Shown in pieces: positions 2,134 to 18,944 of a stretch of 64,000 nucleotides of DNA. The DNA is taken from positions 99,518 to 163,517 of the forward strand of contig JASBUR010000031.1 in NCBI GenBank assembly GCA_030147805.1. Reading direction: 5' to 3'. Numbering within the stretch: position 1 is the first letter of the stretch; every line of letters starts with the position of its first letter. The notes below the pieces were generated by a model. The model saw only the letters and a list, made by a program, of their open reading frames with translations. It was not told the DNA's origin and did not search any database. Both the position numbers and the translations under genes were made by a program. This stretch comes from Sphingomonadaceae bacterium. Lineage in GTDB: Bacteria; Pseudomonadota; Alphaproteobacteria; Sphingomonadales; Sphingomonadaceae.

Positions 2134-2597
2134 GGCGGCTGCGGCTCCTGATGCTGGCGTCGCTGTTCGTCGCCGCCACCGCGGGCGCGGTGCTGCCCGA
2201 CGAGCAGCTCGCAGACCCGGCGCTCGAGGCGCGGGCGCGCGCGATCAGCAAGCAGCTGCGCTGTGTCGTCTGCCAGAACCAGTCGATCGACGATTCGGAC
2301 GCGCCGCTGGCGCGCGACCTGCGCGTCATCGTCCGCGAGCAGCTGTCGGCGGGCAAGAGCGACGAAGCGACGATGGATTTCGTCGTCGACCGCTATGGCC
2401 ATTTCGTGCTGTTGAAGCCGCCGTTCGAGCCGGCGACCTGGGCGCTGTGGCTGATGCCGCTGTTCGTGCTGCTGGCGGGCGGCATCGGCGTCGCGCGCTA
2501 TCTCGGCGGGCGGCAGCGCGCCGCGGCCGGCGGCGACGATCTCACCGCCGACGAGCGGGCGCGCGTCGATGCGCTGCTGCGCGATAGCGATCAATAA
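2130..2597 (+). CDS. ccmH: cytochrome c-type biogenesis protein CcmH
   Basis: ATGA overlap with ccmG. It has a signal peptide, the LRCVVCQNQSIDDSDAPLA (CxxC) motif and a C-terminal TM helix. Confidence 0.9.
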   Translation: MRRLRLLMLASLFVAATAGAVLPDEQLADPALEARARAISKQLRCVVCQNQSIDDSDAPLARDLRVIVREQLSAGKSDEATMDFVVDRYGHFVLLKPPFEPATWALWLMPLFVLLAGGIGVARYLGGRQRAAAGGDDLTADERARVDALLRDSDQ

Positions 2598-2610
2598 GGA
2601 TTAGCTGCCA

Positions 2611-3813
2611 ATGACCCTGTGGATCATCCTCACCGTCATGGTCGCGCTTGCCGTCGTCGGCGTGGCGATCCCGCTGGTACGCCGCTACGAAGCCGCCGCC
2701 GACGCGCGGTCGGCGACGCTGGCGGTGCTCAAGGACCAGCTCGGCGAGATCGACGGCCAGGAAAAGGCCGGCATTGCCAGCCCGGCCGAGGCCGAGGCGC
2801 TGCGCACCGAGCTGCGTCGCCGCATGCTGGCCGAGGCGCGCGAGCGCGGCGAGGTGGCGCGGCCCTATGGCGCGCAGAGCCTGGGGCGCTTCGCCTTCGC
2901 GATGGCGGCGGTCGTCGCGCTCGCCGCGACCGGACTCTACGCAATGATGGGCCGGCCCGACCTCACCGCGACGGCGACCCCTGCTGCGGCGGGCGCCGGC
3001 GCCGCGGCCGAGGGCGCCTCGGACATCGACGGGCTGATTCGCGGTCTCGAACAGAAGATGGCGGCCAATCCCGACGATCCCGAGGGCTGGCGCATGCTCG
3101 GCTGGTCCTACTTCCAGACCGGACGCTTCGCCGAATCGGCCAACGCCTATCGCCGCGCCGTGGCGATCGCCCCCAACGGACCCGGCTACCAATCGGCGTT
3201 CGGCGAGGCGCTGGTGCAGGCGGCGCAGGGATCGGTGACCCCCGAAGCGGCCACCGCCTTCGAAGCGGCGAAGGCGCTCGACCCCGCCGATGCGCGCGCG
3301 CGCTATTTCCTCGCGGTGCTCAAGGACCAGAAGGGCGACCGCGCCGCTGCGCTCGCCGACTGGATCGGGCTGCTCAACGAGGCGCCCGCCGACGCACCCT
3401 GGGCGCCCGACCTGCGCGCCTTCGTCGAGCGCATCGCCAAGGAGGACGGCATCGAGCTGGCTGGCCGGTTGAAGCCGGCCGCCGCCGCGCCGATCGCCGG
3501 GCCGATGCCGGCGCCCGCGGCCGGCGCCGCGCCGGGGCCGACCCCCGACGACGTCAAGGCGGCGATGGCGATGCCCGAGGGCGACCGCCAGGCGATGGTG
3601 CGCGGCATGGTCGACGGCCTTGCGGCGCGGCTGCAGGCGAGCCCGCGCGATGCGGACGGCTGGGTGCGCCTGATGCGCGCGCGCATGGTGCTCGGCGAAC
3701 CCGCGGCAGCGTCGGCGGCATTGAAGCAGGGCGTCGCGGCGTTCGGCGATTCGCCCGCCGAGCAGCAGAAGCTCCGTGACGCGGCGAAGTCATTGGGCGT
3801 GCCGGGAAGCTGA
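2611..3813 (+). CDS. ccmI: cytochrome c-type biogenesis protein CcmI/CycH (TPR-containing)
   Basis: N-terminal TM segments, an Ala/Pro-rich linker and TPR-like repeats (GWRMLGWSYFQTGRFAESANAYRRAV). It lies directly after ccmH. Confidence 0.75.
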   Translation: MTLWIILTVMVALAVVGVAIPLVRRYEAAADARSATLAVLKDQLGEIDGQEKAGIASPAEAEALRTELRRRMLAEARERGEVARPYGAQSLGRFAFAMAAVVALAATGLYAMMGRPDLTATATPAAAGAGAAAEGASDIDGLIRGLEQKMAANPDDPEGWRMLGWSYFQTGRFAESANAYRRAVAIAPNGPGYQSAFGEALVQAAQGSVTPEAATAFEAAKALDPADARARYFLAVLKDQKGDRAAALADWIGLLNEAPADAPWAPDLRAFVERIAKEDGIELAGRLKPAAAAPIAGPMPAPAAGAAPGPTPDDVKAAMAMPEGDRQAMVRGMVDGLAARLQASPRDADGWVRLMRARMVLGEPAAASAALKQGVAAFGDSPAEQQKLRDAAKSLGVPGS

Positions 3814-3948: not shown

Positions 3949-5661
3949 CTAGAAACCGACCAGCGCGGTGACCGTGACGCGGGGGTCGCGCTGCGGCGAG
4001 GCGCCCGCGACGGTGCGCGTCGAATCGGCGAAGCGCAGGTCGACAAAGGCGCTCGAGAACAGCCCCAGCCGCGCGCCCGCGCCCCAGGACGCAACCGTCG
4101 TGCCGGTCTTGGGCGTCGTGCCATTGGCGAGCGACTGGACGCGGGCGCGATCGAGGAAGCCGTAGAGCTGGAGCGAGTTGACGCTTGGCTGCGTCGGCAG
4201 CCTGGCGTCGTAGCGGATCTCGGCGACGCCGCCGAGACCGCGGTCGCCGGCGACGATCGAGGGATCGTAGCCGCGGCCGATCGCGCCGCCGCCGAACGAG
4301 ATCTGTTCGCCCGACAGCAGGATGTCGCGCGTATACTGGCCCTGCATTGCCACCTGCGCGCTGAAGCGGCCGCCGAGCGGCTGCGTGCGCTGCGCGTTGA
4401 CGGTGACGCGGGTGAAGTCGGGCTCGAAGCCGCCGACCGACGGCAGCGCCGCGTCCGACTCCATCGAGCCGAGCCACGGCAGGCCGCGGAAGATCGCGAC
4501 CGCGGCGTTGGTCGAGCCGCCGAGCCAGCCCGCCTGCTGGAACACGAGGCCGAGCTCGGCGACGACGGTCTTGTCGAGGATGATGCGGACGTTCGCCGCC
4601 TCGGTGCGCGACCGGTTGGCCGAGATTCCCCCGTCGAGGAACAGCGAGGTCGGGCGGCTGCGGATCAGCGGATGGCGCACGCGCGCCGCCAGCGAGGTAA
4701 CGAAGCTTTCGATGTCGAGCGCGGCGACCGGCCCGCCCGGCTTGGCGAGCGCGACGAGCCCGCCGAGGCTGGCGACGGTGCCGGCGTGACCGAGCGGCTC
4801 GGCGTAGCGCAGGCTGAGCGAGCGCAGTTCCTCGAGATTGTCGCCGGCGCCCGACAGGCCGACGTCGAGCGCGCCGACGCGGCCGAACGGGCGCGTCAGC
4901 GTGGCGTTGGCGCCGACCGCCCAGGGGCCGAGCGAATCGGAGCCGGTGTTGTTGAGGCTGACGCTGTAGCTCGACGGCAGGTCGCTCACCGCCAGCGCCA
5001 GTTCCGACTGGCCGAGCTCGGCGCCCTGGCGCAGCACGCCGGCGCCCGCGATGCCGGGCAGGTCGTTGACGATGAGCAGCCGCCGCTCGAGCGCGTCGAG
5101 CGCGACCGGCTTCACGCCGACGATCGGCTGCATGAGCTTCTGCAGCCGCTCGCGCGTCGCCGCGTCGGGACTGTCGACGAACACCGCGCTGACATAGCCC
5201 TCGACGACGCGCACCGTCAGCACGCCGTCCTCGACCTGCTGCGGCGGGACGAAGACGCGCGTCAGGAAGTGGCCGTCGGCGCGGTATTTGGTCTCGAGCG
5301 CGGTCGCGGCCCGGCGCAGGTCCTCGAGCACGATCTTGCGGCCTTCGAGCGGCGCGAAGAAGGCGCGCACCTCGGCTTCGGGATAGCGCGTCGCGCCCTC
5401 GACGGCGATGCGCTGGATCTCGAACTCGATCTCGTCGACGGCGCGCGGCGTCGCGGCGCGCTCGGGCGACTGGATGCGAAGGTCGAATTCGGGCGTCTCG
5501 GGCAGCGGGTCGGGCACGCGGGCCCGCGAAATGTCCGCGGTGCTCGGGATCTGCGAGGGAACCTGCGCCAGCGCGGGAACGGCGGCGCCGGCGAGCAGCA
5601 GCAGCGTCAGCAGGCGCGCGGGGCGGCGCGCCGGGAAGGATGTCGAGGTCAAGCGGGGCAC
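3949..5661 (-). CDS. ShlB/FhaC/HecB-type two-partner-secretion outer-membrane transporter (TpsB)
   Basis: The GTG at 5661 lies 5 nt after the upstream gene's TAG. Signal peptide ARLLTLLLLAGAAVPALAQV. POTRA-like region (IAVEGATRYPEAEVRAFFAPLEGRKIVLEDLRRAATALETKYRADGHFLTRVFVPPQQVEDGVLTVRVVEGY). The C-terminal part has beta-barrel-like composition and ends in ...TALVGF. The N-terminal 176 codons of track ORF 3949..6189 overlap the cyclase gene and look like junk. Confidence 0.85.
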   Translation of the reverse strand: MPRLTSTSFPARRPARLLTLLLLAGAAVPALAQVPSQIPSTADISRARVPDPLPETPEFDLRIQSPERAATPRAVDEIEFEIQRIAVEGATRYPEAEVRAFFAPLEGRKIVLEDLRRAATALETKYRADGHFLTRVFVPPQQVEDGVLTVRVVEGYVSAVFVDSPDAATRERLQKLMQPIVGVKPVALDALERRLLIVNDLPGIAGAGVLRQGAELGQSELALAVSDLPSSYSVSLNNTGSDSLGPWAVGANATLTRPFGRVGALDVGLSGAGDNLEELRSLSLRYAEPLGHAGTVASLGGLVALAKPGGPVAALDIESFVTSLAARVRHPLIRSRPTSLFLDGGISANRSRTEAANVRIILDKTVVAELGLVFQQAGWLGGSTNAAVAIFRGLPWLGSMESDAALPSVGGFEPDFTRVTVNAQRTQPLGGRFSAQVAMQGQYTRDILLSGEQISFGGGAIGRGYDPSIVAGDRGLGGVAEIRYDARLPTQPSVNSLQLYGFLDRARVQSLANGTTPKTGTTVASWGAGARLGLFSSAFVDLRFADSTRTVAGASPQRDPRVTVTALVGF

Positions 5662-5666
5662 CTGGG

Positions 5667-7637
5667 CTATTTGTCTTCCATCACGACGAGATTGGTGACC
5701 GTGCCCTTTTCCACGCGGGCGTGGTGGAAGGCGGTGATCGGATCGTCGGGATATTGCTTGTGGAGCGCGCGCACCGCAGCGGCGGCGTCGGGCGTGCCGA
5801 GCTTCAGCAGCTCGTAGGAGGCGGCATAGGCCTTGGCGAGGTCGGACTTGGCATCGTCCTCGCTGACCGGGCAATAGAGAGTCACCGGCTCGGTCTTGCC
5901 CTTGAGCACGATGTCGCCGATCGGGCGGAAGAACAGGTTCGGGCAGCGCTTGACCACCTCGTCGGTGCAGCAGATGCGCGTGCCGAAATATTTGTTCACG
6001 CCCTCGGTGCGCGCCGCGGTGTTGACGGTGTCGCCGAGCGCGGTGAAGTCCATCCGCGAATGCGAGCCGAAGTTGCCGATGGTGGCGACGCCGCAATGCA
6101 CGCCGATGCGCGTCACGCCGATCGGCACGCCCGCCTCGTTCTGGCGCTTGCGGAAGGCCTCGGCATAGACGTCGAGCTCGAGCGCGCACTTCACGGCGCG
6201 TTCGGCGTGATCCTCCTGCGGGATCGGCGCGTTGAAGATCGACATGATCGCGTCGCCGATGAACTTGTCGATCGTGCCTTCATATTTCAGGATGATGTCG
6301 CAGGCGCCGTCGAGATATTCATTGAGCACGTCGGACAATTGCTCCGACCCGAGGATCTCCGACAGCGTCGTGAAGCCGGCGATGTCGGTGAAGATGAAGG
6401 TCGCCTCGCGGCGGGTGCCCGAGATGCTGACCGAGCTCGGGTCCTTGACGAGCTGGCTGACGACCGCGGGCGAGACGTAGCGCGAGAAGGCGCCCTGCAC
6501 GAACTCGCGCTGCTTGCGCTCGGCCTTGCCGATCAGCGCGTCCATCATCCACAGCGACACCGCCAGCGCGAGCGTCGGCGCGAGCAGCGGCACCATCGGG
6601 AGGACGCCGGCGGCATAGCCGTACATCGCGGCGACCCAATAGGCGACGACGATCGCTGCGCCCAGCCCCATGTTGAAGGCGACGCCGCGCTTGAACAGGC
6701 TGATGACGACGCCCAGCGTCGCGAACAGCAGGCTGAAGCCGATGATTTCGGCCAGCGTCGGCTTGGCGGGTTTACGGCCCTCGAGATACTGGGCGATGCC
6801 GTGCGCCTGGACGAGAATTCCCGGCATCATCGCGTCGTCGCCGTCGGCATAGACCGCGAGCGGGGTGCGGTGACGGTCGGTCATCGACACGATCGCGCCG
6901 ACCAGCACGATCTTGTCGCGGAACCAGTCGTCGGGAAGATAGGCGGCGCCCATCGCCGGGTAGATCGGGAAGGCGGGCGATTCGGCATCGGGCCGCGCAC
7001 GCCAGGCGATCTCGACCTCCTGCTTGGTGCGCACCGGCTTTCCGGCGAGCTCGAGCGCCTTGTAGACGAAGCCGAGCGGCTCGTCCTTCTTGAGTCCGCC
7101 GGTATAGATGCGCCGCACGCTGCCGTCGAACGGATCGGTCAGCAGGTTGGCCGCGGCGCGCCGCTCGGGCGGCACGAAGGCGTTCATGTAGGCGAGCTGG
7201 TCCTCGTTCACGACATTCTCTTCGAGCGTGTAGCTGACGAAGAGCGGCGTCTCGAGGTCGCGGATCACCTGCGCGAGTTTCAGATCCTTCGCCTCCTCGG
7301 TCGGCTGGTCGAGGATGACGTCGAGCCCGATGACCTTCGCCCCCTTGTTCTGCAGCGCGACGAGCAGGTCGGCGAGGAAGCCGCGGTCGACGGGCGACCG
7401 GTAGGGGAATTGCGCCAGCGTCGCCTCGTCGAGCGCGACGACGACGATGTCCTTCGACGCGGGCTGCGCCGGCTGGATCGCGACGCGCAGGTCGTTGGCG
7501 GTATTGTCGAGGCTGGTGAGAAAGCTGAGATAGCGCACCCCCGCCACCGCGAGCGCGGCGGCGACGAACGCCACCGCGACATAGGTCGCGACCTTGCCGG
7601 CGGTTCCCGACAGCAGCTTGCCCCCCGGCAGCCTCAC
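5667..7637 (-). CDS. CHASE2 sensor domain-containing class III adenylate/guanylate cyclase
   Basis: GTG start in a GTGA overlap with the upstream stop. The layout is TM1 (VATYVAVAFVAAALAVAGV), a ~300-aa extracytoplasmic CHASE2-like region (IVVVALDEATLAQFPYRSPVDRGFLADLLVALQNKGAKVIGLDVILDQP), three TM helices, then a cyclase domain (EATFIFTDIAGFTTLSE, KFIGDAIMS, FTALGDTVNTAAR). Confidence 0.9.
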   Translation of the reverse strand: MRLPGGKLLSGTAGKVATYVAVAFVAAALAVAGVRYLSFLTSLDNTANDLRVAIQPAQPASKDIVVVALDEATLAQFPYRSPVDRGFLADLLVALQNKGAKVIGLDVILDQPTEEAKDLKLAQVIRDLETPLFVSYTLEENVVNEDQLAYMNAFVPPERRAAANLLTDPFDGSVRRIYTGGLKKDEPLGFVYKALELAGKPVRTKQEVEIAWRARPDAESPAFPIYPAMGAAYLPDDWFRDKIVLVGAIVSMTDRHRTPLAVYADGDDAMMPGILVQAHGIAQYLEGRKPAKPTLAEIIGFSLLFATLGVVISLFKRGVAFNMGLGAAIVVAYWVAAMYGYAAGVLPMVPLLAPTLALAVSLWMMDALIGKAERKQREFVQGAFSRYVSPAVVSQLVKDPSSVSISGTRREATFIFTDIAGFTTLSEILGSEQLSDVLNEYLDGACDIILKYEGTIDKFIGDAIMSIFNAPIPQEDHAERAVKCALELDVYAEAFRKRQNEAGVPIGVTRIGVHCGVATIGNFGSHSRMDFTALGDTVNTAARTEGVNKYFGTRICCTDEVVKRCPNLFFRPIGDIVLKGKTEPVTLYCPVSEDDAKSDLAKAYAASYELLKLGTPDAAAAVRALHKQYPDDPITAFHHARVEKGTVTNLVVMEDK

Positions 7638-8377
7638 TGTGCGGTGCTCGCGGTCGCGGCGCTCTGCGCGGTCTGCATGCGGCCGAGCAGCGCGTCGGCC
7701 TGCGGGATGCAGCCCTTTTCGAGCATCCACGAGGCGAGCACGAGATCGTCGCCGATATCGCGCGGGATGACGTTGACGCCGACCGCAATCTCCTGGCCGT
7801 CGCTGCGCACGATGAAGGTCGTCGTGCCGTCATATTTCTGCAGCGGCGGCGCCTTGAGCTGCGTCTGTCCCGGCGCCCAGGTGAAGTCGGCGCGCCACGA
7901 GCGGTCGATCGGGTAGACGGTGAACGCCTGCGCCGCGCCGCCGTCGGGACGCCACCAGATCGGCGCGGTTCCTTCGCGCAGGCAGCGCGGACCGGGTCGG
8001 CTGATGTCGATCAGCCACGGGTCGTCGAGCTTCACGGCGCCCGCTCCGGCGCGCACCGCCCCGATCGAGCTGGCGCGCGCGTTGCGCGTGCTGATCAGCG
8101 CCGCGAGCGCCTGCCGCGGGTCGGCGGCGCCACCGCCGGCGCCGCGCGAAGCCGGCGGGCCGCTGAACGGCCCGCGCAGCGCCACGGTCTTGCCGTCGGG
8201 GCCGATCAGCGTGAGCCGCTCGCCTTCCTTCAGCGACAGCGCGGCGCTGCTCTCGACGCTCATGCCGGGCTTGAGCGATCCGGCGCGGGCGTCGATGACG
8301 ATCATCTTCGCCGCCATCGCCGTCGCCGGCGCCAGCGCCAGCGCACCTGCCATCAGCCAGTTGTTCAGCCGGATCAT
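7634..8377 (-). CDS. secreted hypothetical protein (247 aa), family not recognised
   Basis: ATGA overlap with the CHAT gene stop. Signal peptide MIRLNNWLMAGALALAPATAMAA. GC3-rich codons and protein-like composition. It is bracketed by start-stop overlaps on both sides. Confidence 0.6.
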   Translation of the reverse strand: MIRLNNWLMAGALALAPATAMAAKMIVIDARAGSLKPGMSVESSAALSLKEGERLTLIGPDGKTVALRGPFSGPPASRGAGGGAADPRQALAALISTRNARASSIGAVRAGAGAVKLDDPWLIDISRPGPRCLREGTAPIWWRPDGGAAQAFTVYPIDRSWRADFTWAPGQTQLKAPPLQKYDGTTTFIVRSDGQEIAVGVNVIPRDIGDDLVLASWMLEKGCIPQADALLGRMQTAQSAATASTAQ

Positions 8378-11374
8378 TCCGCCGCCCCCGCCGCCGCCGG
8401 CGCGGCGGTCGCCGCGCCGTCACCCATTACCACGAATGCCGCCCAGAAAAACGGGTGTGCCGTCTGCGGCTTGGCGATCATCGACAGCTGCGCGCTGCGC
8501 AGCGCGTCGGCCGAACCCGTCGCCATCTCGGGGCCGAGACTGGTGAACAGGCTCGACATCAGCTCGGCGGTCGCCGCCGAGGGCACCTGCCAATGGCTGA
8601 TCAACATGTTGCGCGCGCCGGCGTGGAAGAAGGCCTCCGACAGGCCCGACAGCGATTCGCCGCCGAAGCGCGAGCCGCCCGAGGCGGTGTTGCAGGCCGA
8701 GAGCACGACGAGATCGGCGTTGAGCGACAGGCCAGCGACTTCGCTCGCCTCGAGCAGCCCGTCCTCGGCGCGGCTCTGCGCGGCGGCGGGCGGGGTCAGC
8801 ACGAGGCCAGGCTCGCCCTGGCACTTCAGCTCGCCCGGCAGCAGGCCGTGCGTCGCCAGATAGAGCACGCGGTAGCGCGACAGTTCCTGCGCCCGCAGGT
8901 TCGATTCATTGGCGCGGTCGCCTAGGAACAGGCTGGCATCGTCGGCGCGCAGCACGCGCGCGACGTTGCGGACTTCCGACGCGGTGTCGGGCAGCGAGGC
9001 CAGCGCGGTGAGCAGCTCGGCCGGCATCGGGCCGTCGACGCGGCAATTGCCGGCAATGCGCGCGAAGGCGGTGCTCGTGGCGGCGCTGGTGGTGCCGGCC
9101 CGCACCGGCGTCGCCAGCACCGGATTGCCGAAGGCGAGCAGCGGCCGGTCAGGCGTCTTGGCGGCGCGGGTGGTGCGCAGCGTGTGGAAGGCCTGCAGCG
9201 ACGGCGAATGCGCGATCGCCGCGCGCCTCGCCAGCCAGGCGGCATCGCCGTAGCGGTCGCTCGCCGGCGCGCTGGTGACGAGCAGCGCGAACGGCAGGCT
9301 GGCGAGCGGGCCGGTCGGCACGAAGCTCAGCCGGTCGAGGCTGGCCAGCTCCGGCTCGAGATCGGCGAACAGGTCGCGATAGAGCTGGTGCGCGCGGCGC
9401 GTGTCGAACTCGTTGATCGAGCCGCCCTGGATTTCGAGCGAGCGCCGGAGCGCCGTCACCGCGTCGCGAAGCTCGGCCTCGCCGCCCGTCGCCTTGCCGA
9501 TGAAGATGCCGTCGCGGCGCACCAGCTGGACGAAGGTCGCGTTGCGGCCGATCAGGAAGGAGACGACGCCCTCGCGCTCGGCGATGCGGCTGCGCAGCTC
9601 GTCGAGCTGCATCGGCCGGCCTTCGGCCATCGCCGCATAGTCGGGGAAGCTCGCCACCAGCGTCGCGCGCAGCTCGCCGATCTTCTTGTCGGCGTCGGCG
9701 ATATCGTTCTTGAGGCCGTCCTCGACCTCGGCGCTGCGCTCGCCGTCGGGCAATGAGCCCTCGTGTGCGAGCTTGACGCGCGCGAAATCGGCGACGCGCT
9801 CCTGGTCCTGGATCTGGCGAAGCAGCGCCGCGATCTCGGGATTGGCCGCCGACAGCCGCGCCGCCGCCTGCGCGATGGTCTTGTCGACCAGCGGCGAACG
9901 GATCAGCTGGAAGGCGTCGAACGCCTCGGCGTACAGACCCTGCCGCTCCTTGGGATCGTCGAGCGTGCGGGCATAATCGACGACGGCGGCGGCGAAGGGC
10001 AGCAGGTCCTCGGTGGTCAGCGCCACCGAGTCGCGCGGCAGCGCCTTGGCCGCCTGCATGACGTCGCGAAACGCGATGATCGCCGAGCGGTGCATGCCCT
10101 CGCTCTGGTAGGCGCGGCCAAGGATGGCGCGCATGCGCAGCGTTGCGGCGCCCTCGCCCGAGATGGTGTGGCGTTCGGCGAGCGCGTTGCGCAGGTAGGT
10201 TTCGGCGGCAGACAGCCGCCCCTGCGCGACGCTGACCTGGCCGAGCGTCGACAGGATGTCGGAGCGCCAGAAGCGCGGCAGCCCCTCGGTCGAATTGACG
10301 ATCAGCAGCGCCTCGCTCGCCGCCGCATAGGCGGAGACCGGATCGTCCTGGCGCAGCGCCATCAGCGCCTGCAGGTTGAGCGCCATCGCCATCTCGCCAC
10401 GCGCCATCGTGCGCAGGCCGCCGGGCGAAGCGTTGATCGCATCGGCGCCGCCGGCACCGCCGCCGGCGACCTCGCTCCAGATCTCGGCGGCGGTACGCGC
10501 CTGCGCCAGCGCGCCGGCGAAGTCGCCGCGATTGGCGGCCTCGTAGCCGAGGTAGGTGGCGAGGCGCGCGCGGTCGGCGGGGTTCGACGAGCGCTGGATG
10601 ATCGGCTCGGCGCGGCGGAACAGCGCCGCCGCCTCGTCGGCCCGGCCCTGGTTCGACACGTTGAGCGCCAGATCCATCATGATCTCGGCGGCGGTGACGT
10701 CGTTCTCGCTGAACAGCCGCGTCTGCACGTCGAGCGCCTGGCGGAACAGGCTTTCGGACGCGGTATATTTTCCCTGGCCGTTGGCGACGCGGGCGTCGCG
10801 CAGCAGCGACTTCAGCTGGTCGATGTCGCCGGCGCTCGCCAGCACCACCGGCTCGCCCCACAGCGCCTGCAGCTGCGCGACGAGCTGCGGCCGCGAGCCT
10901 TCGACCGGCTGGCCGACCGCGGTGGCGAGCACGGGGAACATCGAGGCGGCGCCTTCGGCGACGGTCAGCACGCCATTGGCCTCGCGCGCCAGCACCAGCG
11001 TCGGCCAGCCGCCGCTGCGCGCGCGGCACGGCAGCGCCAGCGTCTCGCCGATCCAGCCCGGGCTTGCAGTCGAGCCGGCCGCGCGCCAGCTGCCCCGGGC
11101 GGCTGGCGTCGAGCGCCGCGAGCAGCGCCGCCTGGCGGGCGTCGCCGGCGGGCAGGCCGGGGGTCTTCGCATAGGCGATCGCGCCGCTGACCTTGCCGTT
11201 GCAGACGATGCGTTTCTCGATCGGAAGCCCCGACACGGCGGCGACATCGTCGCGATCGCGCGCGATGCAGGTCTCATCGGCGAGGCTGGCCGCGAGCGGG
11301 CTTTCCTGCGCCGACACGGCGCTCGCGGCGACCGTCGCGGCGAACAGCAGGGCGGTAGCGGCGACTCTTACCAT
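8374..11374 (-). CDS. secreted TPR-repeat CHAT-domain (caspase-like) protease; apparent single-base frameshift near 11050-11075
   Basis: The N-terminus with its signal peptide (MVRVAATALLFAATVAASAVSAQE..., ATG 11374) is in the frame of ORF 9149..11374. The rest is in the frame of ORF 8374..11277. The middle has TPR-like repeats. The C-terminal CHAT domain carries a His/Cys dyad context (RVLYLATHGLL ... DLVVLSACNTASG). The span is 3001 nt, which is 3n+1. Confidence 0.8.
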
Positions 11375-14300
11375 TGCGACGGGTTCCCGCTGCCCGAGAA
11401 GGCCTGATCGGCGCCGGGCACCTCGGTGGAGCGCGGCGGCGTCGGCAGCTCGACGTTTACGCCGGGCACGACGACGCTGGTGTTGGCGAGCTGACGCTTC
11501 TCCTGCGTCGGCTCTTCCTGCTCCTCCGACTCGGCCTCGGCGAGCACGGGGTCGCCCTGGTCGGCGGCGTCGCTCGGCGTCGGCGGCGGCGTATCGCCCA
11601 CCGGGCTCGGCGGCGTGGCCTCGACGGGCGGACCCGGCGGCGGTGGGGGCGGCGGCGTGCTGTTGCCACCCGTTGCCGACGGCGGGCTGGCCGGCGGCGG
11701 CGCTGGCGGCGGTGGCGGTGGCGGTGGCGGGGGCGGGGGCGGCGGCGCTGGCGGCGTGGGAGTGCCGCCCGAACCGCCACCCTGCGGTGCCTGTCCGCCG
11801 GTCGAGCCGCCGCCGCCGCCCCCGCCACCGCCCGTCGGCGCGCCCGCGGGGGGCGCCGTCGGTGTCGGCGTGGGCGTGGGGGTCGGCGTCGGCGTCGGCG
11901 TCGTGCGGATCGAACTGGTGGCCTGCTGGACGACGCTGTTCGTCACCTGCTGCACCGGCTGCTGCTGTGCCGGCGGGATCGGCGTCGATGGCGTGACGGT
12001 GAGCGCGGTCGCATTGCCCGGGGCCTGCACGAAGACGTAATTGGCAGCGGCGAGCCCGCCGCCGTTGATCGCATAGCTGCCCGCCGTGCTCGCGACCGTT
12101 GCCGGGCTGTCGAAGGCGAGCGTGCCGGTCGTGGCGCCGGCCTGTGTCTCGCCGGCGACGAAGCCCGCCACCGATCCGGTGAATGCCGGGTTGGCCTCGC
12201 CGACCGCCCGCGTCGCGCTGTCGGCGGTGTAGGTGAGCGTCGCCGGGGTGATCGTCCCGATCGCGCCGCTCGCGCTGACCGGCAGCACATAATTGGCGAG
12301 GCTGGTGCCGGCGTTAGCGGTGAAGGCGGCGGGGGCGAGCGCGGCAGTGACCGTCAGCCCGCTGCCGACGCCCGGCGAAGCGAAGCTGCCGGTGCCGGCG
12401 CCGAGCGCCGCGCCTTCGCCGGCGACGAAGCCGCCGATGGCGTAGTTGGCGCCCGCCAGCGTGGCGGTCACGGTCGCATCATAGATTTTCTGCACGCTGC
12501 CGGTAAGCGCCGCGGTCAGCGCCCTCGGCATGATCGTCGCGGTGCCGGCGGCCGGTACGGCGAGCGAGTAATTCCCCGCGTCGGCGCCGGTCAGCGCCGT
12601 GCCGGTGGCCGTGACGGCGCGTGTCCCCGCGTCCTTCGCGGCGAAGGTGAAGCTGGTGCCGGACGCGGCGACCGAATCGCCTGCGACGATTCCGGCGAGC
12701 GAAAGCGTGCCCGTCGCGGCGGTGCTGCCGTCATAGACCTTGTCGCCGGCGACGACGCTGGCCTGCAGCGCCCTGGCGCTGATGTCGGCGCTGCCCGCCG
12801 CCGTCGAGGCGAGCATATAGTTGCCGGCGTCGGTGCCGGTCAGCGCGACGCCGCTGGCGGTGACCGCCTTGCCGATGCCGACATTCTTGTCGGCGAAGGC
12901 GAGCGCGCCGGTCGCGGCGACGTTGTCGCCGGCGACGGTGCCGGCGAGCGTCACCTGTCCCTGCGCCGCCACCGTGCCGTCATAGACCTTGCTCGACGCG
13001 ACGACGGTGCCGCTGATCTGCCGGGCCGCGATGTCGGCGGTGCCGGCGCTCGTCGACGCCAGCATATAGTTGCCGGCGTCGGTGCCGGTCAGCGCGACGC
13101 CGCTGGCGGTGACCGCCTTGCCGATGCCGACGTTCTTGTCGGCGAAGGCGAGCGCGCCGCTCGCGGCGACCTGGTCGCCGGCGATGGTGCCGGCGAGCGC
13201 CACCTGCCCCTGCGCGACCGTCGTGCCGTCGTAGACCTTGCCGCTCGCGACGACGGTGCCGCTGATCGCGCGGGCCGAAATGCTGGCGCTGCCGACCGCG
13301 GGGCCCGACAGCATGTAGTTGCCGGCGTCGCTGCCGCCGAGCGCGATGCCGTTGGCGGTGACGGTCTTGTTGAGGCCGGCGTTCTTGTCGGCAAAGCTCA
13401 GCGTCGCGCCCTGCGTGCTGACTTGGTCGCCGGCGACGACGCCGGCGAGGCTGACGCCGCCGGTGGCGGCGGTGGTGCCGTCGTAGACCTTATGGTCGGC
13501 ATTGACCGCGACCTGCAGCGCCTTCGCGGTGATCGTGCCGACGGCGCCCGACAGCGAGGCGGCCGACAGTTCGTAGTTGGCGGCTTTCGCGCCGGCCAGC
13601 GTGAGGCCGGTCGCGGTGACGAGCTTGCCCTGTCCGACGTTCTTGCTGTCGTAGCTGGCGCTGGCGGCCACGGCGGCGAGCTGGTCGCCGTTGACCAGTC
13701 CGGTGAGCGCCAGGGCGCCGCCGACCGCAGCGTTGGTGCTGCCGTCGTAGATCCTGGTCACCGGTCCGGCGAAATTGGCGGCGATCACCCGTCGCGCGAC
13801 GGTGAGCGTGCTGTCGACGAGCTGTAGCGTATAGCCGGTCGGCGCCGAAAGATTGCCGAGGCCGAGCGTCAGCGCATAGCTGCCGGCATCGGCGGCGACG
13901 CCCGACCCGGCCGAAGCGAGCGTCGGCGCGCCGAGCAGCTGATCCTGGGTGAACACGTTGCCGAAGGCGGCGGCGTCGACGAGGCCGCCGACGCTATAGT
14001 CGCTGCCGAGCGCCGGCGCATTGAGGTTGATCGCGTCGCCGTAGGTCTTGCTCTTGGCGGTGGCGGTGAGCGTGGCCGTCGGCGCCTGACCGAAGGCGTA
14101 GCGGTTGCCGCTGGCACCGCCGCCGGGCAGCGCCGCGAAGCCGCTGGCGGCGAGGCTGGTGAAGGACTGGCCCCAGATCGCGCTCTGGTTGCTGAGCAGG
14201 CCGCCGAAGCTGTTCGCCGCCGGCGCCGACGAATAGACCAGCCACTGGCCATTGTTGGCGGTGCTCAGCGCGCTGGCGCCCGCTTCGTTGACGAAGCTGC

Positions 14301-17300
14301 CGTTGCTGATCAGTTCGGCGCGCGCCCCGTCGACGAGATAGTCGAAACCATTGGCGAGCGTGATGCGATCGCCGGCGATGACGCGGATGGTCGCGTTGGC
14401 CTCGCTGGTGGCCTGGCCGCGGAGAATGACGCTGCCGCCCACCCCGCTCGACTCGAAGACCGTCAGCGTCGGCTCGGGTGGCGGGCAGGGCCCTTCGCAT
14501 TCCGACAGCGAGAGGCTCTGCTCTGTCTCGGTGACGTCGACGTCGATCGTCCCGGCCCTGTCGCTGCCGAAGACGCGCGTCGGCGCGAAGATATTCTCGA
14601 GCTCGAAGCTCGTGAGCGCGAGCCCGGTGCCGCGCGGCGAGGTCCCGCCGAGGAAAATGTTCCGGCCAGCGGTCCGCGGCGCCACCGCGATCGAGTCCTC
14701 CGCGAACACGGCGCCGAACAGGTCGAGGTCGTCGGCATCGAAGCTGAGGTTGCCACCGGCGACGGTGAAGCTGGTCTCCCCTTCGTCGACCGTGATCGAG
14801 GTGGCGCCGAAGATCGCATCGCCGGACGCCAGGTCGATCCCGCCGAGGTAGCCATAGCCCTCGCCCATCGGATGCGGGCCGCCGACGGTGATGCCACTCG
14901 AAGCGCCGAGCAGGGCGGAGAAGGCGCCGCCCTGAGTGCGCAACAATCCGGTGACTTCGAGCGTGGTGCCGCTCCCGCCGATGATGTCGAGGTTGCCGCC
15001 GCCGGTATCGATGTCGCCGGCGAGGTACATCTCGCCGCCGAGGAACCCTTCGCCGGTGTCGATGCCGTTACCGACCGCGGCGACGAAGGCGCCGCCGTTG
15101 GTGAAGATCGATCCGCCGACGTCGAGCACGGCACCGTCGCCGCCGGTCAGCGAGACATCCCCGGAATAGGCGTCGATCAGTGCACTGGTCTGCAGCTGGC
15201 CGTGGTTGCCGACGTTGACGGTCAGCCCGCCGTTGGTCGCCGTCTGCACGCTGCCGCTGGCGATGAACCCCTCGAGCATCACCGCGCCTTCCAGCGCATT
15301 GATCGCGATGCCGTTGGTGGTCAGGCTGCCGCCGATCGTGACCGTGCTTTGCAGGTCGGCGTTGATGAGCAGGCTGCCACCGATGTCGTTGAGGCCGGTG
15401 AGATTGATGTCGGCGCCGGGGCCGCCATCGATCCGGAAATCGCCCCCCAGCGTGTGGAAATCGCCGCCGTCGCCGCCGCTGCTCAGCGAGGCGCCGAAGC
15501 CGAGCGACACCTGGATCGCGCCGCTGACGGTTTCGAAGGTGCCGAGGTTGCTGATTTCCGAAAAGATGTTGGCCTGCGCATTGCCGCTGCCGACCGACAG
15601 AGCGATTGCGCCATCCTCGGTCGTCACGGTGCCATATTCGTTGCGCAGGTAGGCGCCGTCGCCGATCGCCAGGTTGATCGTGCCGAGACCCTGCGTACGC
15701 GTCTGGCTTTCTGAGCGGAGCGTCAGATTGCCCTCGAGACCGAGCGTGATGGCGATGTTGCCGCCCAGGCTGTCGAAACTCGCGTCGATGATGCCGTTGT
15801 TGGTCAAGTTGTGATAGTCGCCGCCGACAAAGCTGATCGCCCCGCCGCCCGAGAAGATCTCGCCGTCATTCTCCATCCCCATCGCGTTGGGAGAAATGCC
15901 GTCATATTCGCTTTCGACGAGCACATTGCCGCCGTCCGTCTCGATACTGAAGGCGTTGTAGATGAAGTCGCCGGGCGTGTTGCCGTTGAGGTCGCCGCCG
16001 ACGATCAGGCTGAGGTCGCCGCCATTGGTGGTCAGCCGGTAGGGCATTTCGGGCGCCGCCTGCAGGTCGATCATATGGCCGGCCTTGACGACGAGGTTCA
16101 GCCGTCCCGGCAGCATGGCGTCGGTGGTGATCCTCTCGGCGATGGTGACTTTGGTTTCGCTGACCAGCTCGAGCGTCGAATCGCGGAAGCCGCCGGTGTC
16201 GATCTCGCCGGCCACGGTGAGGCCGAAGCCTACGCTGCCGCCGCCGCTCAGCGCTTCGCGGAGGGCGACGTCGGTGGCGCCATAGAGCGGGCCGTTGTCG
16301 CCGCCGACGCTGCTGTTGAGCGCCCCGGCCAGCACGCGGCCGTCGATGAAGAAATCGGACGACACGCCGCCGGCCCACAGCGGGCTGGTCGGCGTCGACG
16401 TTCCCCCGATGATCATGTTGCGCCCGGCGCCGACCCAGCTGCCGTTGGCGCCGCCCGCCGCGTAGCCGCCGAGATCGATGCCGCTCAGCACGCTGTCGAT
16501 GTCCTCGACATTCGCCGCACCGGTCACCTGCAGCCGATAGCCGACGGTTTCGAGCCGGCCGCCGTTGCCGCCGCGTGCCGAGATGCCGCCGTCGATGTAG
16601 ATGCCCGGCGTGGCGCCCTGGTCGCCTTCCATCACGGCCGCCACCGTGCGCACGACGATGGTGCCGCCGGTGCTTCCCGGCGACAGGTCGGCGGCCGAGG
16701 CGCGCAGTGAGGTGTCGTGGCCGATCCAGATCTCGCGGGCGAGCGGCTGGCTGCCGACCGCCGGGGCGCCGGCGAGGCCGCCACCGAGGAGGATGGTGCC
16801 GCCCTGAACGTTGCCCGATGCCGAGATTCGCGTGTCGTAGCGCTTGTCGACCACCAGTTCGGGATTCTCGTTCGGAATGAAGGTGTGATCGCCTTCGGTC
16901 TCGATGCGCTCGGCGGCGATGCGCACGCTGCCGCCGGTGCCGCCGCCGCCGCCGTTGGCGGCGGGCGTCACCGAATTGGCGACGATCGTGCCGCTCGGGT
17001 TGAGCTTGAAATAGGGGGTGACGACCTCGACGGTGCCGCCGGTGCCGCTGGCGCCGCCCATGTTGCTCGAATTGCTGCTCGCCTGAACGTCGATGAAACC
17101 CGAGGTTTCGATCGTCGGGTCGCTGCCGACCGGTCCGCCGGCGGTGGTCAGGAATATCTGGCCGCCCTGCCGCCCCGTGCCGCCGAAGGCGCGCGCCTGG
17201 ATTTCGACGATCGGCTGATTGGTGGCGTCGAAGTTGCTGGCCTCGACGTTGCCGATCTCGATCCGGTTGGCGAGCGGCGCGGCGGCATAGTCGGTGCCGG

Positions 17301-18525
17301 CGAGGCCCCTGCCGATGCTGATGACGCCGCCATTGGCGAGCGCACCCGTCGACAACGCGCCGGCGGTTGCGCTGGCGAGCAGCTTGGCGCGCGCCGTGGT
17401 GCCGATCACGATCTCGTCGCCGAGCACGGTGATGCTGCCCGGCGCGGCGTTGATGTTGCTGTTGACGTTGATGACGCCGCCGATCAGCGCTCCCTGGTTG
17501 ATCTGGTCCTGCTGGGTGCCGTTGATGCGTACGATGCCGTTGGCGCCACCGTCGATCGTGACGGCGCCCGCGACGTCGGTGCCGCTGCTCGCGCTCAGGT
17601 CGATCACGCCGCCGACGACGCGCGCGGTCACGGCGTTGATGTTGCCGCCCATGTTGACGACCGACTCGACGATGTTCGACGCCGCGCGCGCCGACATCAG
17701 CACGCGGCCGCCGCGCGCCTGCAGGTTGCCGACATTGTTGACGAGGGGCACGAAGTTCGACTGCCCGTCCTCGGAACGCGTGTTGTACTCGCCGCCGACA
17801 GCGAAAGTGATCAGCTTGTCGCCATCGAGTGCCAGCGCGAAGACGGGGACGCCCGCGAGTACGACCGATCCGAGGTCCGCAAAGATGTTGCCCATTTGAT
17901 TGTTGGCGCCATTGCGCACTTCGTGGCCGGCCAGAATCGCATAACCACTGCCTACGTTGATCATCCCCTCGTTGATGACCGCCGCGAAGCCGTAACCGCT
18001 GGGGTCGACCGCGGCATCATCGCTGAAGCTGAAATTCTCCGCGAGGAAGTTCTGCTCGGCGATCGTGTGCGTCGTGGCGAGGAAGCCGCGCGCGTTGATG
18101 CTGCCGTTGGGGCCGATCGCGACGCCGTTTCGGTTGAGCAGCCACACCTGCCCGTTGGCGACGATGTTGCCGTCGATCGCCGACGGCGTGCTGCCGGTGA
18201 CGCGATTGAGGATGATCGCAGATTCATTCGGCTGGGCGAAAGTGAGCGTCTGGCCCGCGCCGACGGAAAAGCCGCTCCAGTCGATGACGCTGCGCTGGTT
18301 GGTCTGGGTGATCGTCTGGGTCGTGCCGTTCGTCGTGCCGAAACTGATGTCGGAGGAATTGGCAACGACGGCGCCCGGCAGCTGCTGTGCCGCGGCCGGT
18401 GCGCCCGCCAGCGCGACGAGGCTCGCCGCCCCGAGTGCGGTGCCCGATAGCCAGGCGTTGCGGCGCCGGCGCGCGACGCGCGGTTCGACGGTCAGCTTCA
18501 CGATGCTAGGATGAGATGCGTTCAT
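11368..18525 (-). CDS. giant two-partner-secretion exoprotein (TpsA, filamentous-hemagglutinin-like adhesin), 2385 aa
   Basis: The N-terminal signal region is followed by a TPS/haemagglutination-activity domain (QTITQTNQRSVIDWSGFSVGAGQTLTF, AIILNRVTGSTPSAIDGNIVANGQVWLLNRNGVAIG). Then come ~1200 aa of Gly/Asn/Ser/Thr/Ile-rich beta-helix-like sequence, about nine YDG/MBG-type repeats (KVYDGTTAA...DAGNY) and a PT/Gly/Pro low-complexity tail. Confidence 0.9.
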   Translation of the reverse strand: MNASHPSIVKLTVEPRVARRRRNAWLSGTALGAASLVALAGAPAAAQQLPGAVVANSSDISFGTTNGTTQTITQTNQRSVIDWSGFSVGAGQTLTFAQPNESAIILNRVTGSTPSAIDGNIVANGQVWLLNRNGVAIGPNGSINARGFLATTHTIAEQNFLAENFSFSDDAAVDPSGYGFAAVINEGMINVGSGYAILAGHEVRNGANNQMGNIFADLGSVVLAGVPVFALALDGDKLITFAVGGEYNTRSEDGQSNFVPLVNNVGNLQARGGRVLMSARAASNIVESVVNMGGNINAVTARVVGGVIDLSASSGTDVAGAVTIDGGANGIVRINGTQQDQINQGALIGGVINVNSNINAAPGSITVLGDEIVIGTTARAKLLASATAGALSTGALANGGVISIGRGLAGTDYAAAPLANRIEIGNVEASNFDATNQPIVEIQARAFGGTGRQGGQIFLTTAGGPVGSDPTIETSGFIDVQASSNSSNMGGASGTGGTVEVVTPYFKLNPSGTIVANSVTPAANGGGGGTGGSVRIAAERIETEGDHTFIPNENPELVVDKRYDTRISASGNVQGGTILLGGGLAGAPAVGSQPLAREIWIGHDTSLRASAADLSPGSTGGTIVVRTVAAVMEGDQGATPGIYIDGGISARGGNGGRLETVGYRLQVTGAANVEDIDSVLSGIDLGGYAAGGANGSWVGAGRNMIIGGTSTPTSPLWAGGVSSDFFIDGRVLAGALNSSVGGDNGPLYGATDVALREALSGGGSVGFGLTVAGEIDTGGFRDSTLELVSETKVTIAERITTDAMLPGRLNLVVKAGHMIDLQAAPEMPYRLTTNGGDLSLIVGGDLNGNTPGDFIYNAFSIETDGGNVLVESEYDGISPNAMGMENDGEIFSGGGAISFVGGDYHNLTNNGIIDASFDSLGGNIAITLGLEGNLTLRSESQTRTQGLGTINLAIGDGAYLRNEYGTVTTEDGAIALSVGSGNAQANIFSEISNLGTFETVSGAIQVSLGFGASLSSGGDGGDFHTLGGDFRIDGGPGADINLTGLNDIGGSLLINADLQSTVTIGGSLTTNGIAINALEGAVMLEGFIASGSVQTATNGGLTVNVGNHGQLQTSALIDAYSGDVSLTGGDGAVLDVGGSIFTNGGAFVAAVGNGIDTGEGFLGGEMYLAGDIDTGGGNLDIIGGSGTTLEVTGLLRTQGGAFSALLGASSGITVGGPHPMGEGYGYLGGIDLASGDAIFGATSITVDEGETSFTVAGGNLSFDADDLDLFGAVFAEDSIAVAPRTAGRNIFLGGTSPRGTGLALTSFELENIFAPTRVFGSDRAGTIDVDVTETEQSLSLSECEGPCPPPEPTLTVFESSGVGGSVILRGQATSEANATIRVIAGDRITLANGFDYLVDGARAELISNGSFVNEAGASALSTANNGQWLVYSSAPAANSFGGLLSNQSAIWGQSFTSLAASGFAALPGGGASGNRYAFGQAPTATLTATAKSKTYGDAINLNAPALGSDYSVGGLVDAAAFGNVFTQDQLLGAPTLASAGSGVAADAGSYALTLGLGNLSAPTGYTLQLVDSTLTVARRVIAANFAGPVTRIYDGSTNAAVGGALALTGLVNGDQLAAVAASASYDSKNVGQGKLVTATGLTLAGAKAANYELSAASLSGAVGTITAKALQVAVNADHKVYDGTTAATGGVSLAGVVAGDQVSTQGATLSFADKNAGLNKTVTANGIALGGSDAGNYMLSGPAVGSASISARAISGTVVASGKVYDGTTVAQGQVALAGTIAGDQVAASGALAFADKNVGIGKAVTASGVALTGTDAGNYMLASTSAGTADIAARQISGTVVASSKVYDGTVAAQGQVTLAGTVAGDNVAATGALAFADKNVGIGKAVTASGVALTGTDAGNYMLASTAAGSADISARALQASVVAGDKVYDGSTAATGTLSLAGIVAGDSVAASGTSFTFAAKDAGTRAVTATGTALTGADAGNYSLAVPAAGTATIMPRALTAALTGSVQKIYDATVTATLAGANYAIGGFVAGEGAALGAGTGSFASPGVGSGLTVTAALAPAAFTANAGTSLANYVLPVSASGAIGTITPATLTYTADSATRAVGEANPAFTGSVAGFVAGETQAGATTGTLAFDSPATVASTAGSYAINGGGLAAANYVFVQAPGNATALTVTPSTPIPPAQQQPVQQVTNSVVQQATSSIRTTPTPTPTPTPTPTPTAPPAGAPTGGGGGGGGGSTGGQAPQGGGSGGTPTPPAPPPPPPPPPPPPPPAPPPASPPSATGGNSTPPPPPPPGPPVEATPPSPVGDTPPPTPSDAADQGDPVLAEAESEEQEEPTQEKRQLANTSVVVPGVNVELPTPPRSTEVPGADQAFSGSGNPSQW
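11570..11910 (-). repeat. low-complexity coding tract in the TpsA tail: (PT)n, Gly8, Pro14 and Pro7 runs built from GGC/GGT/GGG and GCC triplet repeats
   Basis: The translation reads TTPTPTPTPTPTPTAPPAGAPTGGGGGGGGSTGG...PPAPPPPPPPPPPPPPPAPPPASPP...TPPPPPPPGPP. On the plus strand this appears as ggcggcggtggcggtggcggtggcgggggcgggggcggcggc at about 11692-11760. Confidence 0.85.
12000..14100 (-). repeat. array of ~83-aa YDG/MBG-type repeats inside the TpsA gene, including two near-identical 249-nt tandem units at about 12790-13290
   Basis: The unit ...KVYDG(T/S)TAA.G.V.LAG.VAGD.V...FADKN.G..K.VTA.G.AL.G.DAGNY.L... recurs. Plus-strand 12841-12900 and 13090-13149 differ at 1 of 60 positions. Confidence 0.8.
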
Positions 18526-18944
18526 ATCGCCGGGCCACTCAGCTTCACTGGAGGTTACACCGGGCTACGCGGCATCCTTGCTCGCTCCGCACGCGCCACG
18601 ACGCGAGCCGCCGGCCCGCGAACGCTCACGATCGGAGAGAGCAGCGGCGGTCCAAATCCCCACCGTTCGCCAACTGCCCAACAACCCCCCAGCTACGGCA
18701 GTATAGTGAATCCGGATGCGCGGCAATGCGCTTCTTAACAAGCGGTTAATGGGATTGCGATTTGCGGCGGCTTGCTGTCGCAATGTCGAAGTAAGCGGCA
18801 AGTCGTTTGCGAAGCGCAACAAACGAGATGATCGTAATGAAGGCGAATCGATCTGTCATATTTGTCGATGGTTCAAATGCATATCATGAAATCATCAACC
18901 GGCATCCGACGGGAGTTTGCACCGCACTGGCCTGCCGAGGAAAA
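18526..18944 (-). promoter_or_regulatory. long intergenic leader/promoter region upstream of the TpsA gene, with a locally lower-GC island and a TTAAC-N5-GTTAA palindrome
   Basis: This is 419 nt with no credible ORF. An AT-richer stretch lies at about 18820-18900 (atgatcgtaatgaaggcgaatcgatctgtcatatttgtcgatggttcaaatgcatatcatgaaatcatc). An inverted repeat (ttaacaagcggttaa) lies at 18735-18749. I could not place convincing -35/-10 boxes. Confidence 0.35.

Follow-up and report, generated by a model that had tools for sequence, protein, structure and literature searches.

A conserved five-gene cassette joining a two-partner secretion pair to a predicted periplasmic CHAT protease and a CHASE2 cyclase in a Sphingomonadaceae bacterium

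Secretion of giant exoproteins and signalling through CHASE2 cyclases have each been described with partners in the periplasm or the outer membrane. In Bordetella, the C-terminal prodomain of the exoprotein FhaB is kept in the periplasm and cut stepwise by DegP and CtpA, with a proline-rich region and the 98-residue extreme C-terminus controlling the cutting (PMC8263021). In S. meliloti, signalling by the CHASE2 cyclase CyaK depends on NsrA, a protein of the outer membrane (PMC7529298, PMC13001267), and a cluster in Campylobacterota contains a CHASE2 cyclase, a FecR outer-membrane protein, a TPR protein and a phosphodiesterase (PMC9239204). The locus considered here lies in a stretch of 64,000 nucleotides (nt) from a Sphingomonadaceae bacterium (GenBank assembly GCA_030147805.1, contig JASBUR010000031.1, positions 99,518 to 163,517), referred to below as the window. 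It is a five-gene cassette in which the genes of a two-partner secretion (TPS) pair, tpsA and tpsB, enclose those for a TPR-CHAT protease, an exported protein of an unnamed family, termed X, and a CHASE2 class III cyclase. In the literature searched, no description of the module or of its parts together was found, as the first-pass annotation had supposed, and the module thus appears undescribed, being made of parts of known kinds and having two partial precedents. The supposed novelty of the wiring holds only in part, since in NsrA-CyaK a CHASE2 cyclase that takes its input from an outer-membrane protein has already been characterised (PMC7529298, PMC13001267).

With FhaB/FhaC the cassette shares a TpsA with an N-terminal TPS domain and an Omp85-type TpsB. 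In layout, moreover, its TpsA has the marks of an FhaB-type prodomain, a Pro-rich region followed by a conserved extreme C-terminus, in this case a stretch of ~80–100 residues. Periplasmic proteases control maturation and release in the FhaB/FhaC system, and by analogy the same role may be proposed for the protease of the module. The differences are that a dedicated, operon-encoded TPR-CHAT protein stands here in place of the housekeeping DegP and CtpA, that the putative periplasmic part of the exoprotein is ~180 amino acids (aa) long instead of ~1200, and that a CHASE2 cyclase and X have been added. Unlike the adjacent gene pair of canonical TPS systems, tpsA and tpsB of the window have three genes, spanning 5.7 kb, between them.

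The LapD-LapG-LapA system combines a giant adhesin at an outer-membrane pore with a periplasmic cysteine protease by which the adhesin is cut and an inner-membrane cyclic-nucleotide link, an overall logic that the proposed module may share by analogy. The components differ, with a type I secretion system in place of TPS, LapG in place of CHAT, and a cyclic di-GMP receptor in place of a synthase of cyclic AMP (cAMP), as does the direction of signalling, which is inside-out in Lap and probably outside-in here. Csx29 of type III-E CRISPR is a TPR-CHAT protease of the same domain architecture, but it is cytoplasmic, whereas the protease of the module has a signal peptide. A caspase-fold protease and CHASE2 are also linked in the metacaspase-CHASE2 fusions of cyanobacteria, one polypeptide in Trichodesmium, in which the caspase domain is predicted to be a cytoplasmic output (PMC2853523, PMC3501461); in the module, by contrast, the protease lies on the CHASE2 side of the membrane.

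Reading of the open reading frames (ORFs) bore out five consecutive minus-strand genes at 3949–18525, and searches with hidden Markov models (HMMs) recovered all of the domains named in the first-pass annotation (TPS, TPR, CHAT, CHASE2, Guanylate_cyc, POTRA_2 and ShlB). The ATGA overlap of CHAT and X, the GTGA overlap of X and the cyclase gene, and the 5-nt gap before tpsB stand as first read. The junction of tpsA and CHAT, which had been taken as a 1-nt gap, is instead a 7-nt overlap, ATGGTAA, with the start ATG at 11374–11372 and the stop TAA at 11370–11368. Within the five-gene block, promoter- and terminator-like sites were no more frequent than expected by chance.

The arrangement is not peculiar to this genome. 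With one genome scanned per species, X was found in 102 species, and 80 loci were examined, ~47 of which belong by record title to Alphaproteobacteria (almost all Sphingomonadales) and ~26 to Betaproteobacteria (mostly Burkholderiales), some of the taxon labels of metagenome-assembled genomes (MAGs) among them being implausible. The expected conservation of the neighbourhood was confirmed, as the order CHAT-X-cyclase-TpsB on one strand recurs in all 80 genome loci long enough to judge. An overlap of 4 nt is available between CHAT and X in 49 of 81 loci and between X and the cyclase gene in 54 of 77, counts for which the start codon nearest the upstream stop was chosen, a choice that favours short distances. 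Moreover, tpsA flanks this core in 57 of the 59 loci in which its place can be determined, upstream of CHAT in 39, as in the window, and directly downstream of tpsB in 18; that the TpsA neighbour is kept despite its changing position argues for a functional link. Taken together, comparison of these loci supports the five genes as a functional unit and not a chance neighbourhood, the observation being far beyond chance. Cultured carriers include Sphingoaurantiacus capsulatus KCTC 42644, Sphingomonas humi JCM 16603, Sandarakinorhabdus limnophila DSM 17366, Chakrabartia godavariana PRB40 and Rhizorhabdus argentea DSM 100912.

The TpsA of the window is composed of a long signal peptide, the TPS domain, a beta-helix region, YDG/MBG repeats, a Pro-rich linker and a conserved tail, its N-terminus consisting of a basic and a hydrophobic stretch ahead of the TPS domain, as in a Sec signal. 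TpsB has a POTRA domain and an Omp85/ShlB-type barrel with the L6 motif, and its best solved relative, matched over the full length, is CdiB (6wim, 4e-14). Among relatives the cargo varies from ~930 to 2400 aa, and the segments aligned by tblastn are ~32–49% identical to the window TpsA outside L001/L002 (61%). The 80-residue tail that follows the proline-rich linker forms the extreme C-terminal end of the protein encoded upstream of CHAT in 39 genome loci and is conserved across Alphaproteobacteria and Betaproteobacteria; among its motifs are DxxDxxD and FSxxGN. In the window it reads PSPV..PPTPxDxADxGDxxLA ... FSGSGNPSQW-COOH, and the family consensus is PSPV..(K)PPTPxDxADxGDxxLA ... PPR..PG.D.(R)FS.(S)GN..(W)-COOH; the Pfam search of TpsA gave no match to this part. 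A partial tail is present on the downstream-type TpsA of L011.

The linkage of tail and protease was also approached from the tail side, by searching metagenomes with a degenerate DNA pattern for PPTPxDxADxGD and then judging full-length tails by HMM. The pattern returned 79 stretches, 63 with full-length tails, 57 of which had at least 250 nt of sequence downstream. A CHAT gene lies within ~350 nt downstream in 43 of these 57, and the other 14 comprise seven with less than 550 nt left, two with weak matches, three with a TPS-domain match, which may represent the downstream arrangement or tandem tpsA genes, and two that are unexplained. This linkage to CHAT marks the tail as a signature of cargo belonging to the cassette, and a cassette-specific tail fits periplasmic components that would read or process the TPS cargo. 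At L029, the ends of two genes that encode a tail are ~0.7 kb apart on opposite strands (433, plus strand; 1141, minus strand) upstream of CHAT, where two cargo genes may converge.

The components between the secretion genes are consistent with the periplasmic placement originally predicted, as CHAT, X and TpsB have signal-peptide-like N-termini and the topology of CHASE2 agrees. The protease consists of a signal peptide, a Cys-containing N-domain, TPRs and the CHAT domain, whose dyad motifs are kept almost without exception among relatives (His in 80 of 81, Cys in 81 of 81). The four cysteines of its N-terminal domain, as read in the window, and the two invariant cysteines of X fit an oxidising compartment. 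X itself, of 25 kDa, has no match in Pfam, NCBIfam or PADLOC. Its invariant residues include W121, R131, C132, W141/W142 and D158–F165. Its family comprises 897 clusters at 50% identity, and its close relatives, none of which is named, are 53–60% identical between Sphingomonadales and Burkholderiales. An AlphaFold2 (AF2) model of X (predicted local distance difference test, pLDDT, 82) consists of a small beta domain, a helix, an Ig-like sandwich and C-terminal helices, for which Foldseek gave no significant match in the PDB, only generic Ig/fn3-like ones with E > 1e-3.

The cyclase has hydrophobic segments at aa 12–43 and 293–370, one before CHASE2 and three after it, an arrangement that puts CHASE2 on the periplasmic side of the membrane and the catalytic domain on the cytoplasmic side. 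All six class III residues are present, namely two metal Asp, the Lys/Thr substrate pair, and the transition-state Asn and Arg, and the segments FTDIAGFT, IDKFIGDAIM and MDFTALGDTVNTAAR align with CyaB of P. aeruginosa (3r5g) and CyaC of Spirulina (1wc0). With the Lys/Thr pair and all class III catalytic residues in place, cAMP is the likely product. The protein thus has the architecture and the catalytic residues of a CHASE2 receptor adenylate cyclase of the CyaK/CyaD type, and an identical 656-aa protein is recorded at NCBI. CHASE2 is, to our knowledge, a widespread sensor domain without a defined ligand or a solved structure. It was modelled by AF2 with a pLDDT of 92 and a predicted template-modelling score (pTM) of 0.90, and a caspase-like or other known fold was rejected for it, the best PDB match having an E of 0.04 and a template-modelling score (TM) <= 0.24. 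Two proteins of ~222 aa, P0383 and P0386, match the first 100 positions of CHASE2 and then the last 50 of CHAT; they were rejected as proof of homology between the two domains, because the Pfam matches lie in separate halves, and they are probably products of truncated or chimeric genes.

We propose that the TPS cargo is monitored or controlled by the module that encodes it, with cAMP as the reporting signal, a reading to which we give about an even chance of being right. The events could be ordered as follows, although this particular order is put forward as a doubtful sketch. TpsA would be threaded through TpsB by means of its N-terminal TPS domain, while the Pro-rich linker and the 80-residue tail would stay in the periplasm. 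The TPR part of the protease would recognise the tail, and CHAT would cut either the tail or X. X, which would be made together with both of its neighbours through the overlapping stop and start codons, would be the partner or ligand of CHASE2. In this way the state of the adhesin, whether in transit, anchored, pulled or released, would be converted into cytoplasmic cAMP, and the same CHAT cut may also mature or release TpsA. TPR domains often bind C-terminal peptides. In the most specific version, the free adhesin tail would activate the TPR-caspase, which would cut X, the protein ligand of CHASE2, and thereby switch on cAMP synthesis; we regard this version as unlikely. The sequences themselves show the gene content, the domains and catalytic residues, the export signals, the conserved order and coupling of the genes and the cassette-specific tail, whereas retention of the tail in the periplasm, which protein cuts which, the direction of signalling and the cAMP product are points that we infer.

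If this most specific version is correct, the module would provide the first defined input of a CHASE2 domain and the first periplasmic signalling role of a bacterial caspase-like protease, and a type V adhesin would have a way of telling the cytoplasm that it has engaged a surface. For type V secretion, the module would be a case of a TPS system wired to a second messenger by a dedicated periplasmic protease, extending the idea of the FhaB C-terminus as a regulator. The module supplies testable partners for CHASE2, namely the strictly co-encoded X, the caspase-like protease and the adhesin tail peptide, and it defines two sequence families outside Pfam and NCBIfam, X and the TpsA tail.

Several points weigh against the proposal. 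The contacts among tail, CHAT, X and CHASE2 are predicted ones, the substrate of CHAT, be it tail or X, is putative, and it is equally possible that the tail serves outside the cell or in secretion. TpsA is missing from the flanks of two cassettes (L005/L020 and L048), and at L064 (775–3226) X is followed directly by TpsB, without a CHASE2 cyclase. In distant relatives the triad of protease, X and cyclase occurs without TPS genes, so its basic function does not depend on TPS. In addition, no gene for a cNMP-binding, CRP-like or other cAMP receptor was found within the window, and the protease ORF is broken in the window itself.

This last point concerns the gene at 11374–8374, which had been described as a single ORF and proved not to be one: its 3001 nt are divided between two frames, with the N-terminal ~105 codons and their signal peptide in the frame from 11374 and the TPRs and CHAT in the ORF 11277–8374. 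Two nucleotides are missing between 11059 and 11058, where the window has GCCCG--GGCTGG and the 92–94% identical relative L001 has GCCCGCCGGCTGG. L095, an independent assembly with an identical X, is 99.93% identical over 5656 nt, differing by two mismatches and this gap, and the CHAT gene is uninterrupted in both relatives (999–1000 aa; 1000 aa in L095). The intact gene in the nearly identical L095 indicates that the lesion arose in assembly or by very recent mutation and is not a programmed shift; the latter was rejected, as the ORF runs through the site in L001 and L095, and it is opposed as well by continuous tblastn matches to CHAT in all but a few other loci. The copy in the window may reflect an error of sequencing or a newly arisen loss-of-function allele. 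Were the deletion real, as it stands in the window sequence, the module would be decaying in this strain, with the protease not exported and the translational coupling to X lost. This is possible, if on the unlikely side, given the intact gene in L095, the integrity of the other four genes and a CHAT frame that bears no further lesions past the deletion; an assembly or consensus error is at least equally likely.

Another explanation takes NsrA-CyaK as the model and regards the module as an outside-in receptor, in which TpsB and a TpsA antenna would relay an external cue through TPR-CHAT and X to CHASE2. The protease would be a scaffold or adaptor, TpsA would remain unprocessed, and cAMP would be raised. 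It draws on the requirement of the outer-membrane NsrA for CyaK signalling in S. meliloti (PMC7529298, PMC13001267), where nsrA, on pSymB, encodes 1219 aa with FecR and TPR matches and has a stop codon that overlaps the start of cyaK (domains read from the DNA of L087). The cassette resembles NsrA-CyaK, and CyaD1/D2, where an inner-membrane CHASE2 class III adenylate cyclase relies on an outer-membrane beta-barrel from an adjoining gene, with stop and start codons that overlap, and where the periplasmic part has TPR repeats. A CHASE2 cyclase, an outer-membrane FecR protein and a TPR protein are likewise joined in Campylobacterota, in a cluster for which CHAT, X and TPS genes are not reported (PMC9239204), and FecR, TPR, CHAT and CHASE2 genes are united at one distant locus, L096. 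However, NsrA is one protein with FecR, TPR and barrel parts, a kind of outer-membrane partner that is not found in the module, and it comes without CHAT, X or a TpsA cargo. TpsB was rejected as a relative of its barrel, there being no similarity between them and no POTRA or ShlB match in NsrA. X was rejected as an equivalent of the FecR-like N-terminus, as none of 35 family members matched FecR at E <= 10 and alignment of X with NsrA residues 1–413 by hhalign gave a probability of 0.2%. Moreover, the strictly conserved CHAT dyad argues for real proteolysis, and what is conserved in the cargo is the extreme C-terminus, not a surface-exposed part. A receptor of this kind is thus rather unlikely.

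It may also be asked whether protease, X and cyclase are an autonomous envelope sensor, responding for instance to protein damage or another ligand, which shares an operon with a TPS adhesin and regulates it via cAMP without physical coupling. Distant members of the X family, sampled at ~28–37% identity, bear on this question, since their genes adjoin those of a CHASE2 cyclase and/or a caspase-fold protease in varied orders, mostly without TPS genes. The orders are CHAT-X-cyclase (L090/L091), cyclase-X-CHAT (L097), cyclase-X (L093), a Peptidase_C14 protein, cNMP-binding genes and X-cyclase (L094), and, at L096, FecR, TPR, CHAT, cNMP_binding, cyclase-X and Peptidase_C14. Two X genes adjoin Peptidase_C14 at L089, and a Niveispirillum plasmid (L088) has TpsA-like, CHAT, X and cyclase genes. 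Judged from these loci, the TPS pair looks added to an older core of protease, X and CHASE2 cyclase. The occurrence of the triad without TPS genes in distant lineages, together with the few cassettes that have no adjacent TpsA, favours autonomy. In the cassette, however, TpsB is fixed 3' of the triad in every locus, the 7-nt overlap of tpsA and CHAT is present in the window and in L084, and the tail is conserved in Alpha- and Betaproteobacteria, for which co-regulation alone is an inadequate explanation. Autonomy of the triad is accordingly regarded as improbable.

Defence systems, too, include CHAT and caspase-like proteases. A role in anti-phage defence or conflict, in which the cyclase would give a nucleotide signal and the CHAT protease would be the effector, as in Pycsar, CBASS and gasdermin-type systems, was nevertheless rejected on the PADLOC result and is very improbable: the cyclase domain matches PycC models (best 2e-30), but over the shared class III cyclase fold only, the five proteins otherwise have no PADLOC match save a weak one to TPR and none to an effector model, the signal peptides of the protease and X put them across the membrane from the nucleotide, so that the cyclase and nucleotide-activated effector of one compartment that characterise Pycsar and CBASS are not found, the cyclase is gated by a periplasmic sensor, and the flanks contain cytochrome c maturation genes and no defence island.

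The features of the cassette are listed in Table 1.

Table 1. Coordinates of the cassette and its parts in the window, followed by oxidoreductase genes flanking cassettes at other loci
Feature	Position (nt)	Strand	Basis
tpsA, 2385-aa secreted exoprotein	11368..18525	-	ORF; Pfam TPS, YDG x6, MBG_2 x2; TIGR01901
TPS secretion domain of TpsA, aa 63-317	17575..18339	-	PF05860 1.1e-25; TIGR01901 3.9e-22
Pro/Gly-rich linker of TpsA, aa 2208-2305, 44% Pro	11611..11904	-	Read from translation
80-aa C-terminal tail of TpsA, aa 2306-2385	11371..11610	-	Conserved among cassette cargo
TPR-CHAT protease gene	8374..11374	-	Split over two frames; Pfam TPR_12, CHAT 8.9e-61
Frameshift site, 2-nt deletion in CHAT gene	11058..11059	-	Alignments with L001 and L095
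CHAT domain	8419..9399	-	Pfam; His in LATHG, nt 8848-8850; Cys in LSACNT, nt 8692-8694
X, 247-aa exported protein, unnamed family	7634..8377	-	Alignment of relatives; AF2 model
CHASE2 class III cyclase, 656 aa	5667..7637	-	Pfam CHASE2 1.2e-33, Guanylate_cyc 4.9e-18
Periplasmic CHASE2 segment of cyclase (predicted)	6732-7559	-	Pfam; hydrophobic segments
Catalytic domain of cyclase	5880-6407	-	Pfam; residues aligned to CyaB 3r5g, CyaC 1wc0
tpsB, Omp85-type transporter: signal peptide, POTRA_2, ShlB barrel	3949..5661	-	Pfam POTRA_2 4.7e-19, ShlB 8.2e-27
L6 GRGY motif of TpsB	4267-4278	-	IGRGYD at aa 462, read from translation
Promoter-like site ~300 nt upstream of tpsA	18831..18859	-	Weak; consensus match only
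~815-aa oxidoreductase gene at other loci	L026 7922-10363; L060 3230-5680; L007 18852-20708; 11 further loci		

A possible receiver of the cAMP signal is a protein of ~815 aa that combines an FAD/NAD(P) oxidoreductase domain (Pyr_redox), two cNMP_binding domains and a 4Fe-4S ferredoxin domain. Its gene lies in the cassette flanks of 14 loci, in three lineages and in three relative positions, and its neighbours encode multihaem cytochromes (Cytochrome_C554/C7, MtrC-like) and cytochrome b561 and include cytochrome c maturation (ccm) genes, which may point to a connection with electron transfer in the periplasm or outside the cell. Synteny with Sphingoaurantiacus capsulatus would put the oxidoreductase gene just past the left edge of the window. 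The ccm genes also border the cassette in L003, in L007 and in the L060 group.

On the left side of the cassette in the window, plus-strand ccm genes at 167–3813 (ccmF, partial; ccmG/Redoxin; ccmH; ccmI with TPR) converge on tpsB, and beyond tpsA the block borders a 2OG-Fe oxygenase gene. Scans for Rfam families and tRNAs found none in the window. Because the G+C content of the region is ~70%, long wrong-frame shadow ORFs occur in the window; examples are 9149–11374 on the minus strand (741 aa), which runs on past the frameshift, and 5640–7916 on the plus strand (758 aa), both artefacts.

Variants of the cassette are found at a few loci. X is duplicated in tandem in L012, L024 (9053–10699) and L027, the first copy overlapping the CHAT stop codon. 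In L084, which is a MAG of Burkholderiales, CHAT and X are separated by inserted genes for a coiled-coil protein and for a soluble cyclase (6911–9966), and the inserted cyclase, judged from its translation, resembles a GAF-GAF-PAS protein with a class III domain. In L005, where no TpsA is adjacent, the region after tpsB is followed at 15796–18481 by genes for two paralogous Gly/Ala/Ser/Pro-rich proteins of 426 and 429 aa, the former without a Pfam match, and these are possible alternative cargo.

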